DNA of 64,000 nt from Escherichia coli (GTDB lineage: Bacteria; Pseudomonadota; Gammaproteobacteria; Enterobacterales; Enterobacteriaceae), in the NCBI RefSeq assembly GCF_036507355.1, contig NZ_AP027877.1. One strand, given 5' to 3'. The translations under genes and the position numbers were made by a program. The notes under the pieces are model-generated. The model ran no database searches. It was not told the origin of the DNA and saw only the letters and a program-made list of their open reading frames with translations. Positions 29,752 to 44,767 of this stretch are shown in pieces; position 1 is the first letter of the stretch; the number at the start of each line of letters is the position of its first letter.

Positions 29752-30630
29752 ATGAGCGACGACAATTCACACAGTAGTGACACGATAAGCAACAAGAAGG
29801 GATTTTTCTCCCTGTTACTCAGCCAACTTTTCCACGGTGAACCGAAAAACCGTGACGAACTGCTGGCGCTGATCCGTGATTCCGGGCAGAACGACCTTAT
29901 CGACGAAGATACGCGCGATATGCTCGAAGGGGTGATGGACATCGCAGACCAACGCGTCCGCGACATCATGATCCCCCGCTCCCAGATGATTACCCTGAAA
30001 CGCAACCAGACGCTGGACGAATGCCTTGATGTCATCATCGAGTCCGCCCACTCACGTTTCCCGGTGATTAGCGAAGACAAAGATCACATTGAAGGGATTC
30101 TGATGGCGAAAGACTTGCTGCCGTTTATGCGCAGCGATGCTGAAGCCTTCAGCATGGACAAAGTGTTACGTCAGGCGGTTGTCGTTCCTGAAAGTAAGCG
30201 CGTAGACCGAATGCTGAAAGAGTTTCGCTCTCAGCGTTACCACATGGCGATCGTCATTGACGAATTCGGTGGGGTTTCCGGTCTGGTGACCATTGAAGAC
30301 ATCCTGGAACTGATTGTTGGTGAGATTGAAGACGAGTATGACGAAGAAGATGATATCGACTTCCGTCAGCTGAGTCGTCATACCTGGACCGTGCGCGCAC
30401 TGGCTTCCATTGAAGACTTCAACGAAGCGTTCGGCACCCACTTTAGCGATGAAGAAGTCGACACTATCGGTGGTCTGGTGATGCAGGCATTCGGGCATCT
30501 TCCAGCGCGTGGTGAAACCATCGACATCGACGGTTACCAGTTCAAAGTGGCGATGGCTGACAGTCGGCGTATTATTCAGGTTCATGTCAAAATCCCGGAT
30601 GACTCACCCCAGCCGAAGCTGGATGAATAA
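29752..30630 (+). CDS. corC: CBS-domain magnesium/cobalt efflux protein CorC/YbeX (292 aa)
   Basis: ORF 29752..30630; tandem CBS domains plus C-terminal CorC_HlyC domain. Confidence 0.95.
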
Positions 30631-40829: not shown

Positions 40830-40930
40830 TTGTTAATAATCCCTTAAGTGCATTAACTGACTACTTTTTTATTATTGATGAGTATAAACTTGACGCTTTC
40901 AAAATAAAAAGAAAATCGAAACATTCACAC

Positions 40931-41485
40931 ATGAATAAAAAATTAATGTATATATTCGCAATTTTTATAGTTGCAGCAATTACCTGTATTAGCCAACCCA
41001 AGAAAACGACGTTGCGTGATAAAGCCATGGTGAATTATGCCTTTGATTATTTAAGCTCACCGGGCAGTCTTCCATTCACCACGGCAGCCACGGAGCTTTC
41101 CGCGATTCATGGTCACTCAACGTCGCAATATCGCCTTGGAGAATTTTATCTTCATGGTAGCGACGGTAAACCACTGGATTATACACAGGCGAGATACTGG
41201 TATGAGCAATCAGCGGAACAGGAAAATCCACGCGCGCAAAGTAAACTGGGGTGGATCTACCTCAAAGGTCTGGGGGTCAAACCCGACACCCGTAAAGCAA
41301 TTCTCTGGTATAAGGAAGCAGCTGAACAAGGGTATGCTCATGCTCAATATACTTTAGGTTTGATCTACAGAAATGGCTCAGGTATTAATGTTAACCATTA
41401 TGAATCTCAAAAATGGTTAAAACTGGCCGCCAAACAACATTACAAAAATGCGGAAAGATTACTTGCCGGGCTTCCCGCACATTAA
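40931..41485 (+). CDS. ybeT: Sel1-repeat (TPR-like) protein YbeT (184 aa) with N-terminal hydrophobic segment
   Basis: ORF 40931..41485; Sel1-like repeats ([42 protein letters not shown]). Confidence 0.88.
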
Positions 41486-41494
41486 CGTCGACTG

Positions 41495-42922
41495 TCACCC
41501 GAACAGATGGAGTATTTTCCCTATCAAACCAGCAAAGATAAAAATATAGAAAATAATTTTAATGATGCCCAGACAGCCTGGCCCACCATCGTCAACGGGC
41601 ATTGGCTGCGGTTGCGGCTCCGGTTCAACAGTTTGCTTCTCGGTAAAATTCGCCGCCTGAATTAATAATCGACGAATAATTAATGCTTCCAGTGGACAAC
41701 GATTTTCTGCATCAAGACGGCTTACGATCGGCATTAATGATTCTTCTGTTGGTTGGCTGGCCTGCACTAATTGTTTGGCAACTAAATATAATGGCCATAA
41801 GGGATGTTCTGTATCACGCGTGAGTGAGATCCGCGGCTTACGTCCTTTGTGCAAAACCATCTCGACCAGTGAACGCCCCAGAGCAGAGAGTTTTTCATCG
41901 CTGAGTATTTCGTATAAATGAAAACGCGTACGGGCGCTGTCGCCGGGGATATAAAGTAGCGGTTTTCCCTGATCGTTAACCAGTTCACGAGCTTCAATCA
42001 TCATCACCACTAACGGGTAATAATCGACCCGATGCTGACGGCACCATTGCAATATTAAAGCATCCGCCTGGGTGGAGGGATACTCGCGCCAGTAGTCACA
42101 AAGTTCTGCCAGCAAGCTTTCGCCTTCTCCACAATAGACGCGTTGTGCGTATTCATAATAACGCGCATCTTCATTATCAGGTTCAGCTTCCCGCCACGAC
42201 CGGGCGTAATCCAGGAGTTCGGGAATTCCCAGGCGACCTGCGCTATACCAGCGGAGTAAATTTCTGTGCAGTTTTGCATCATCGGGGATAATCACTGCGC
42301 GATGTTGCGCTAAATACAATGTCAGCCATTCTGGATGCGATGACCAAATCCGAGCGAACATTTGGTAAAAATCGATGGTGTCATTTTGCACGGCAACGGG
42401 CAGATGCAGGATGGTCTGGAAGTTAAAAACATTCCCCTTCGCAATGGCATATAAAAAGGATTCCAGTTCTTCTTCGTCTATTTCCCCGACGTTTTCTTCC
42501 TGCAACCACCGCAATCTTTCTGCTAATAACACCACGCACTCGAAGGATAAATGGGCAGTGTTCATGGCTATTGTGCACAGCGACCAGCGTAATTCATCAA
42601 TCTCTTCCATCGAGCAATAATTTAATTGCTGAATGAATCGCTGCCAGGCGGAGGGCAGAAAACGTTCGCTATCAGAGGCAAGTAACGCACGAAAGGCGAG
42701 CAGAATTTCATGTTCTGCTACCTCATATTCTTCTGGTTGCCAAACAGATTTAGCAGGCGACTGCGCAATCCGTAGCGCCTCCTCATACGCCTGACGAAGT
42801 TGTTTAAAACCCTGCGGATCGGTTTCTGGATGAAAGGACGGTAACAGCGCCAGATAAGCGCGGCGGATAATATCGACGTCAGTCGTTTCCTCTATGTTGA
42901 GGATCTTCCAGCAATTTTTCAT
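41495..42922 (-). CDS. djlB: J-domain-like co-chaperone DjlB/YbeS (475 aa) with C-terminal hydrophobic tail
   Basis: ORF 41495..42922; paralog of DjlC with the same N-terminal HPETDPQGF segment and a C-terminal hydrophobic stretch ([22 protein letters not shown]). Confidence 0.9.
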
Positions 42923-43626
42923 AGGTCGCTCATATCCTTAAGCGTTTCCGGGCATGTGGGGTAGTCAGCCAGTGGTTGCCAGGGTAAGGTCGCGTAATAT
43001 GCATCGTCACTGGCAAATAATTGATAAAACATATCATTGCCGGAATCGTCGTATTCTTTACGCGCTAAGAATTCACGTAATAAAGGCAGATTATCATCTT
43101 CGGGAGACTGCCAATATTGCCGACCAAAGGTATAACCGGCAAAGTATTGCCGCCAGTTACTATAATAACGTAGAGCCCGTAGATGAATACGCGACTGGAT
43201 CCATAGACTTTCTTCTTCACTCAACCAGTTATTAAGTACGCCCATTCGACTTAAAAAACCCATCCGGACATAATCCCATGCTTTAATTCCTCCCTCACCA
43301 CAGCATTCGGCTGTGCTGGCGACAAATTGCGCATAAGCCTGACCTTGCTCATTTAATTCAGCAAGATAGTCACGCCATTCACATGGAGAATAACGAAACC
43401 AGCGGTGATAAAACCCTGCCAACCGAGCGGCATGACCGTTATCGATCATTCGGTGAATTGTGCGCAGCAGGTCATCACGGTCATCAATTCCCCAGGAGGA
43501 AGAAAGGTCAAAAAAGCATGTACCTAAATACATTTTGGGGGATGAATGCGAAGGTAAACAGCATTCATTGCGTATTTCCATCGGAGTGGAAAGTGCAAAC
43601 AATATTTTTTGCGACTCCATGTCCAT
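42919..43626 (-). CDS. ybeR: DUF1266-family protein YbeR (235 aa)
   Basis: ORF 42919..43626; paralog of YbeU; stop overlaps the djlB start (ATGA). Confidence 0.9.
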
Positions 43627-43640
43627 ATAATTTATCCTTA

Positions 43641-43659
43641 AACATTCATTTAATGAATG
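43641..43659. promoter_or_regulatory. Perfect 19-bp palindrome in the ybeR/ybeQ divergent promoter region (candidate operator)
   Basis: ACATTCATT-T-AATGAATGT: 9-bp arms, perfect dyad, 15 bp upstream of the ybeR start. Confidence 0.4.
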
Positions 43660-43789
43660 TAAACTACATTAGGAGGCTCATTTATTTATACTTTTCTGAC
43701 ACAACATAATACGCATAAAATAAGACTTACGCAAAAACGGAACACATAAAAATATAATATGTTTTATCTGCAACCATAAGGAAATGATA

Positions 43790-44767
43790 ATGATTTTTAC
43801 GTCAAGTTGCTGCGATAATTTGTCAATAGATGAGATTATCGAACGTGCTGAACAAGGCGATAGTGAGGCTCAATATATTGTTGGGTTTTATTATAATCGC
43901 GATAGCGCAATTGACTCTCCGGACGACGAAAAGGCCTTTTACTGGCTGAAGCTGGCCGCTGAGCAAGGTCATTGTGAAGCACAGTATTCCTTAGGGCAAA
44001 AGTATACCGAGGATAAAAGCCGTCATAAAGATAATGAGCAAGCCATCTTCTGGCTGAAAAAAGCTGCCCTACAAGGCCATACTTTCGCTTCCAACGCCCT
44101 TGGCTGGATACTGGATCGTGGAGAAGACCCCAACTATAAAGAAGCGGTTGCCTGGTATCAGATAGCCGCGGAGAGCGGAATGTCTTATGCGCAAAATAAT
44201 CTTGGGTGGATGTACAGAAATGGCAACGGAGTCGCACAAGACTATACGCTGGCATTTTTCTGGTACAAACAAGCTGCATTACAAGGCCATAGTGACGCGC
44301 AAAACAATCTGGCCGATCTTTATGAAGACGGAAAAGGCGTTGCTCAAAACGAGACACTCGCCGCATTCTGGTATTTGAAAAGCGCACAGCAGGGTAATCG
44401 GCATGCTCAGTTTCAAATTGCATGGGATTATAACGCTGGCGAAGGGGTGGACCAGGACTATAAGCAAGCGATGTACTGGTATCTGAAGGCTGCCGCTCAG
44501 GGGAGCGTCGGCGCTTACGTCAACATCGGTTATATGTATAAACACGGACAAGGCGTTGAGAAAGATTATCAGGCTGCCTTTGAATGGTTTACGAAAGCCG
44601 CTGAATGCAATGACGCCACTGCCTGGTATAACCTGGCCATTATGTATCACTACGGAGAAGGAAGACCTGTCGATCTCCGACAGGCTCTCGACCTGTATCG
44701 TAAAGTTCAGTCATCCGGAACCAGAGATGTCAGTCAGGAAATTCGTGAGACTGAAGATTTACTGTAG
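43790..44767 (+). CDS. ybeQ: Sel1-repeat protein YbeQ (325 aa; ORF is open from ATG 43784)
   Basis: ORF 43784..44767; at least seven Sel1-like repeats (AQYxLGxxYxxGxGV pattern). Confidence 0.88.
   Translation: MIFTSSCCDNLSIDEIIERAEQGDSEAQYIVGFYYNRDSAIDSPDDEKAFYWLKLAAEQGHCEAQYSLGQKYTEDKSRHKDNEQAIFWLKKAALQGHTFASNALGWILDRGEDPNYKEAVAWYQIAAESGMSYAQNNLGWMYRNGNGVAQDYTLAFFWYKQAALQGHSDAQNNLADLYEDGKGVAQNETLAAFWYLKSAQQGNRHAQFQIAWDYNAGEGVDQDYKQAMYWYLKAAAQGSVGAYVNIGYMYKHGQGVEKDYQAAFEWFTKAAECNDATAWYNLAIMYHYGEGRPVDLRQALDLYRKVQSSGTRDVSQEIRETEDLL

Follow-up and report, generated by a model that had tools for sequence, protein, structure and literature searches.

A conserved inverted repeat beside the ybeR Shine-Dalgarno sequence of Escherichia, tentatively read as a leader stem-loop

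The ybeR/ybeQ spacer and its inverted repeat

The window analyzed here is a 64-kb stretch of Escherichia coli DNA that carries the gene order hscC-djlC-ybeU-ybeT-djlB-ybeR / ybeQ-ybeL-leuS. Between the divergent genes ybeR and ybeQ lies a spacer of 163 nt, which is as AT-rich as a first-pass annotation of the region had described it (25.8% G+C vs 51.1% for the window). The spacer contains a perfect 9-1-9 inverted repeat, ACATTCATT-T-AATGAATGT. The annotation had already singled out this perfect 19-bp dyad, which is present as described except that its interval is shifted rightward by one base, to 43642..43660 instead of 43641..43659. The features of the region are collected in Table 1.

Table 1. 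Features of the ybeR/ybeQ region and of the ybeT start, in window coordinates
Feature	Position	Strand	Remarks
ATTCA-N4-TGAAT	40923..40936	+	overlaps the ybeT ATG (40931); judged unrelated to the ybeR palindrome
ybeR open reading frame	42919-43626	-	annotated DUF1266 protein
ybeR start codon	43624..43626	-	CAT on the + strand
ybeR Shine-Dalgarno sequence, AAGGAU	43634..43639	-	invariant across all Escherichia alleles
Palindrome arms	43642-43650 and 43652-43660		center base 43651 unpaired
Candidate ybeR -10, TATAAA in GTATAAATAAA	43685..43690	-	putative; conserved in alignments; no good -35
Published predicted sigma-70 ybeQ promoter	43696..43724	+	-35 at 43696-43701 (PMC3946193)

The dyad sits close to the start of ybeR. 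On the ybeR sense strand, the Shine-Dalgarno sequence begins 2 nt past the 3' arm and the ATG lies 16 nt downstream of the palindrome end, with the leader reading ...AAUGAAUGU-UU-AAGGAU-AAAUUAU-AUG. Written as RNA, this minus-strand stem is ACAUUCAU-UAA-AUGAAUGU, that is, an 8-bp stem with a triloop. On the other side, the palindrome center is 139 nt from the annotated ybeQ ATG (RefSeq, 43790) and 133 nt from an in-frame ybeQ ATG at 43784. A published study lists the ybeQ/ybeR spacer as an H-NS site with a sigma-70 "constitutive" ybeQ promoter, CTGACG-17-AATAAG, and gives no ybeR promoter sequence (PMC3946193). The published ybeQ promoter is the K-12 sequence, whereas the window reads CTGACA-17-AATAAG.

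Taken from a single sequence alone, the palindrome is not significant. For the exact 19-mer, 0.03 occurrences would be expected per window, but this test is circular. As a fair test, we counted any perfect palindrome with arms of at least 9 nt and a loop of 0-1 nt in dinucleotide-shuffled windows. These held a mean of 0.68 such palindromes, with at least one in 50% of the shuffles, and the real window holds two. The only other perfect 9-1-9 palindrome of the window is ATGCTGAAG-C-CTTCAGCAT, at 30137-30155.

Alleles across Escherichia

We assembled 47 E. coli copies of the spacer (from complete genomes and metagenome contigs) together with five other Escherichia lineages: E. fergusonii, E. whittamii, Escherichia sp. 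E1V33, MOD1-EC7003, and the LHM10-1 type, which is divergent but falls within E. coli. A peptide scan of contigs yielded three usable Escherichia loci only. The loci P0003 and P0006 proved to be ordinary E. coli with assembly errors. The locus is carried by 3,858 of 5,426 complete E. coli genomes, leaving ~29% without it, and its spacer is polymorphic.

The dyad is kept in every sampled Escherichia allele (Table 2) and is perfect in all seven compared E. coli alleles. Most E. coli carry AATATTCATT-N-AATGAATATT, and in K-12-type alleles the symmetry extends to 10-1-10. The window allele has C43643/G43659 where other E. coli alleles have T/A. A mirrored T>C / A>G pair is the sole difference within the dyad between the window and E. 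fergusonii alleles; by a rough estimate, such a coincidence among 7 differences in 81 nt has p ~0.02. In E. whittamii, ~17 nt upstream of the stem are scrambled and the arms match K-12 at 18 of 20 positions.

Table 2. Alleles of the inverted repeat, written on the ybeR sense strand
Allele	Sequence	Genomes
K-12 type	AATATTCATT-T-AATGAATATT	~3,300/3,828 in its identity class
Other E. coli alleles	K-12 arms, center G, C or A	
Window type	ACATTCATT-A-AATGAATGT	~80
LHM10-1 type	GATATTTATT-T-AGTGAATATT	at least 24
E. fergusonii	ATATTCATT-A-AATGAATAT	
E. whittamii	AATATTCATT-T-TGTGAATATT	
Escherichia sp. E1V33	GATATTCATT-G-AGTGAATGTT	
Escherichia sp. MOD1-EC7003	AGTATTCACT-T-AGTGAATATT	

It is this conservation across alleles that appears to lift the palindrome above chance. 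The idea of a real, maintained dyad was borne out in that it persists in all sampled alleles, including through a mirrored double substitution. Judged by these comparisons, the palindrome appears to be a real, conserved, small element.

The center behaves differently from the rest of the spacer. Position 43651 is the only one of the 163 nt at which the 16 distinct E. coli alleles show all four bases (+ strand: A in 6, C in 6, T in 3, and G in 1). Such variability suggests that this site is a mutational hot spot, for instance because it forms the tip of an extruded hairpin and is left unpaired.

Several further features of these alleles deserve mention in their own right. The window spacer allele is rare, occurring in ~80 of 3,828 E. 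coli genomes (at least 95% identity over 91 nt), and is nearer to E. fergusonii (7 differences in 81 nt) than to K-12 (~11). A rare allele with this resemblance suggests either an old polymorphism or inter-species recombination. Among the 16 spacer alleles, one from a metagenome E. coli has a 24-nt insertion after 43679, an apparent tandem duplication of the ATTTATTTATAC...CTGAC block that falls in the region of the candidate ybeR -10 and the ybeQ -35. In E. coli JX21CE35 (L059, 1440-1500, corresponding approximately to window 43638-43641), an IS1-mediated deletion that includes most of hscC extends as far as the ybeR Shine-Dalgarno sequence; the end of IS1 adjoins TAAATATTCATT..., 2-3 bp from the palindrome, which is intact beside ybeQ. 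The cassette is also decaying in several lineages, with an internal stop in ybeQ of O157:H7 H6437, strain 3908, and DL21, and a frameshifted djlB in NEB10-beta.

Pairing is conserved, with departures on one strand

We scored the dyad as paired positions, labeled L and R for the two arms. Across nine distinct Escherichia alleles, 97.5% of the 81 pair cells are standard pairs, and pairing falls to 32-48% when the register is slid. Double changes occur at two pairs, and the pair L2/R2 is found as U·G, U·A, and C·G. The sense strand has eight G·U cells, at five pair positions, and no A·C cells; the remaining non-pairs are two U·U cells, both at the terminal L10/R10. All non-Watson-Crick cells inside the stem are thereby G·U on the ybeR sense strand.

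By parsimony, about four independent transitions (L10 A>G, L9 A>G, R8 A>G, and L4 C>T) account for the G·U departures, each converting a Watson-Crick pair. The absence of A·C among their outcomes has a one-sided p of ~0.06. In a shuffle control of pairing, the observed value was reached in 51 of 500 trials. A G·U strand signal of this kind might partly reflect transcription-associated bias of the non-template strand toward A>G and C>T. We regard the one-strand G·U evidence as suggestive, not decisive.

Variation among the 16 distinct E. coli alleles affects 5 of the 20 arm positions, compared with ~22% of positions spacer-wide. Because sequence conservation is no higher in the arms than across the spacer, the constraint appears to lie on pairing and not on base identity. 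Pairing that is kept with only G·U departures would be an RNA-type signature, rather than that of a base-specific protein site. In line with the strand of the departures, the sense-strand hairpin is predicted to fold in all nine alleles, with minimum free energies of -3.0 to -6.2 kcal/mol, whereas the antisense fold collapses in E1V33 (-1.2 kcal/mol) and LHM10 (0.0 kcal/mol). The 73-nt leader as a whole folds no better than shuffles (z -1.2 to -0.1).

A proposed protein-binding site for the divergent genes

The first-pass annotation had proposed that the dyad is an operator for a dimeric regulator of both ybeR and ybeQ. Two-fold symmetric operators typify dimeric helix-turn-helix repressors of the LacI, TetR, and MarR types, and the ybeR dyad resembles such sites in being a perfect dyad of 19-21 bp with a free center base, near a gene start in a divergent spacer. 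Symmetry that is perfect down to one unconstrained center base is typical of two-fold protein sites, the element is retained across the genus, and real operators commonly depart by one or two bases in each half-site, as the LHM10 type does. A dimeric helix-turn-helix regulator could bind the 9/10-1-9/10 dyad as a roadblock on ybeR-djlB and might act on ybeQ from about -80.

The placement of the dyad argues against control of both genes. Any plausible ybeR promoter would lie upstream of the dyad, which directly adjoins the ybeR Shine-Dalgarno sequence, and its center is ~80 nt upstream of the start site implied by the one published ybeQ promoter prediction. A protein site also does not predict departures that are G·U on one strand, nor arm bases that, in E. 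coli, vary like the spacer with only their pairing conserved. Unlike LacI-, TetR-, or MarR-type sites, the ybeR dyad comes without a cognate regulator, a consensus match, further sites, or base conservation above background. No regulator gene is annotated among hscC-djlC-ybeU-ybeT-djlB-ybeR-ybeQ-ybeL-leuS. The dyad can be written as a genome-scan pattern, AATATTCATTNAATGAATATT, and the 64-kb window holds no second copy at up to three mismatches.

Known consensus sequences fare no better. Of 15 consensus patterns compared with composition-matched shuffles, none fits the palindrome better than it fits the shuffles; the set includes ArgR, Fur, LexA, SlyA, CRP, FNR, NsrR, MetR, Cra, TyrR, KdgR, PhoP, AcrR, and IHF. 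The ARG box, the ArgR site with the consensus WNTGAATWWWWATTCANW, contains the pentamers TGAAT and ATTCA that also occur in the ybeR palindrome, but their order in the palindrome is everted (ATTCA-N5-TGAAT), and even when optimally aligned to an ARG box the palindrome shows 3-4 mismatches, a fit no better than that of 54% of shuffles. The dyad is, moreover, missing from Salmonella and other orthologous loci that retain the genes, and its sequence appears in no searchable paper.

Protein binding and protein responsiveness in the region count in favor of an operator. The spacer is a known protein-bound region, through H-NS (PMC3946193), and the sister cassette responds to SlyA and H-NS: over-production of SlyA raises ybeT and ybeU-djlC, both of which belong to the H-NS regulon (PMC5797941). 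Weighing both sides, we consider an operator unlikely, and joint control of the two divergent genes, as first suggested, is not supported.

Two elements inside ybeR were also noted. At 43520-43539, at a distance of ~110 nt from the palindrome, stands GCATGTACCTAAATACATTT; its reverse complement is AAATGTATTTAGGTACATGC, which has been proposed as a degenerate LexA site at the "unconventional" LexA ChIP-chip target ybeR/ybeS (PMC3542263). Separately, an inverted repeat within the gene, ATGAATGC-N11-GCATTCAT, has the same heptamer as the leader palindrome and encodes the codons N-E-C and H-S-S. Its CATTCAT/ATGAATG copies (43542-43549 and 43561-43568) were considered as half-sites or pairing partners and discarded, as they are lost in E. 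whittamii, where the leader dyad is kept.

H-NS could also be involved more loosely, with the AT-rich dyad acting as a structural DNA site or cruciform within an H-NS nucleation and silencing region and having no sequence-specific partner. The high-affinity H-NS motif is TCGATAAATT, and AGGATAAATT, beside the palindrome and between the ybeR Shine-Dalgarno sequence and ATG (43627-43636, minus strand), matches it at 8 of 10 positions, although this match is no better than that of 22% of shuffles. The spacer, at 25.8% G+C, is flagged as H-NS-bound (PMC3946193). However, H-NS can bind without a dyad, and compensatory changes are not predicted by such binding; we hold a purely structural site to be very improbable.

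The ATTCA-N4-TGAAT motif at ybeT

The first-pass annotation had linked the palindrome to a related half-site arrangement in the ybeU/ybeT spacer and, through it, to shared control of the duplicated cassettes. The motif ATTCA-N4-TGAAT does exist there and overlaps the ybeT ATG (Table 1), but we judge it unrelated. Its spacing is N4 rather than N5. Its location is the start codon of ybeT, the paralogue of ybeQ and not of ybeR, instead of the region upstream of ybeU. Its TGAAT consists of the ybeT ATG start codon plus an AAT (Asn) codon. Escherichia sp. E1V33, MOD1-EC7003, and E. whittamii keep the ybeR palindrome but read ATTGATAAATGAAC at the ybeT site. The 9-mer common to the two places, AAACATTCA, is peculiar to the window allele, with AAGCATTCA in K-12, and the homologous stretch upstream of ybeU (TTAATGCACTTAAGGGAT) has no inverted partner. 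From these alignments, shared control via the ybeU/ybeT motif appears unsupported.

Origin of the distal arm

The inverted repeat is absent from Salmonella and from two enterobacterial lineages at 67-69% YbeR identity, in which the genes are kept. These distant loci retain only the Shine-Dalgarno-proximal block, (G)TGAATAT(T)TAAG. Because the outgroups hold the proximal arm alone, the distal (left) arm appears to be an Escherichia-specific addition to an older Shine-Dalgarno-proximal block. Template switching yields mirrored multi-base changes in one step, quasipalindrome-associated mutations occur in E. coli, and template switching has been proposed to create RNA hairpins. A template-switch mutation may likewise have created the distal arm, an origin that would be compatible with any functional reading.

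The same process could, in principle, account for the palindrome without any selected function. Intra-strand template switching (quasipalindrome correction) would then have both made the palindrome and kept it symmetric, with the center hypervariable as the unpaired hairpin tip. Outgroups with the proximal arm only imply that the distal arm arose de novo in Escherichia, and the ybeR dyad resembles template-switch hairpins in having one ancestral arm, another that appears at once in one genus, and a mirrored double substitution. That substitution and the "perfecting" changes at L2/R2 are the one-step products expected, and the center is the only four-state site of the spacer. By chance alone, a 9-1-9 palindrome is no rarity in 64 kb of DNA, and the locus is dispensable or decaying in many strains, being absent from ~29% of complete genomes and having ybeQ or djlB pseudogenes in several. 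Against this, the dyad persists genus-wide although the adjacent 17 nt are scrambled, and the departures are biased toward G·U on one strand. Three asymmetries persist uncorrected in each of the LHM10 and E1V33 alleles, so correction would not be efficient. Several ybeR-leader alleles differ from template-switch hairpins in keeping asymmetries uncorrected. We rate a purely mutational explanation as somewhat unlikely.

A more elaborate scenario would join origin and function: a template switch copied the proximal block and gave rise to a genus-specific element, either a leader hairpin or an operator, through which the silent HscC co-chaperone cassette ybeR-djlB is now controlled, with the hypermutable center marking hairpin extrusion in vivo. 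We see this full chain of events as quite improbable.

A possible stem-loop in the ybeR-djlB leader

The reading that we favor, at somewhat less than even confidence, is that the palindrome may form a small stem-loop in the ybeR-djlB mRNA leader. It is preferred because the constraint appears to fall on pairing only and because the G·U pattern is confined to one strand. The element would be an AU-rich stem-loop of 8-9 bp with a triloop, located in the 5' leader and ending 2 nt before the Shine-Dalgarno sequence, where it could modulate translation initiation or shield the leader from decay. For the dyad to be transcribed, the ybeR promoter would lie upstream of it, and on the ybeR sense strand a candidate -10 (TATAAA, 43690-43685) precedes the stem by ~24 nt. 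A promoter scan returned nothing at threshold for ybeR and no consensus promoter, and the supplements of ROSE, Cappable-seq, Romero 2014, and Adams 2021 contain no start site for the ybeR leader.

Enterobacterial mRNA leaders include stabilizing or insulating hairpins just upstream of the Shine-Dalgarno sequence, as in the ompA 5' UTR. The ybeR hairpin resembles such leader stem-loops as a short hairpin adjoining an exposed Shine-Dalgarno sequence and in that compensatory substitutions and G·U changes preserve its sense-strand pairing. Unlike ompA-type leaders, the ybeR hairpin is putative, very AU-rich, and weak (-3 to -6 kcal/mol), and it would not lie at the extreme 5' end if TATAAA is the -10.

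Two further observations count against a leader hairpin. The symmetry runs to a single center base (10-1-10 in K-12), which an RNA loop does not need. In addition, H-NS silences the locus, and the encoded proteins fall below the detection limit during exponential growth (PMC3946193, PMC8215388).

Several more specific roles for an RNA structure were considered and dropped. An insulating function, in which the hairpin frees the Shine-Dalgarno sequence, was suggested by a shuffled left arm that lowered Shine-Dalgarno accessibility in silico (from 0.93 to 0.49 and from 0.83 to 0.27); poly-A or other replacements of the arm caused no drop, and the effect was an artefact of the replacement sequence. 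A larger leader structure, with anti-Shine-Dalgarno pairing of CCUCCUAA...UUAAGG, is available to the window allele only and is not conserved. An intrinsic terminator was dismissed, as a scan of 43450-43950 detected none and the stem has two G-C pairs and is followed by UUAAGG. A search of Rfam gave chance-level matches only (E of at least 5), and PADLOC returned nothing meaningful for the neighboring proteins.

Implications

Together, ybeR-djlB, ybeU-djlC, ybeQ, ybeT, and hscC make up a chaperone module that is among the least understood in E. coli and for which no described cis-regulatory element is known. A conserved leader element offers a handle on when and how the cassette is expressed, with arm, compensatory, and G·U mutants that can readily be built. 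The locus is also a clean, small case in which RNA structure, a protein operator, and a mutational artefact can be separated. If functional, the palindrome would add a new instance of a familiar element, whether leader hairpin or operator, to an operon that has been little studied, and its practical importance would be modest. Should the scenario of a copied proximal block hold true, the ybeR leader would provide a natural bacterial case of template switching generating a selected cis-regulatory element.
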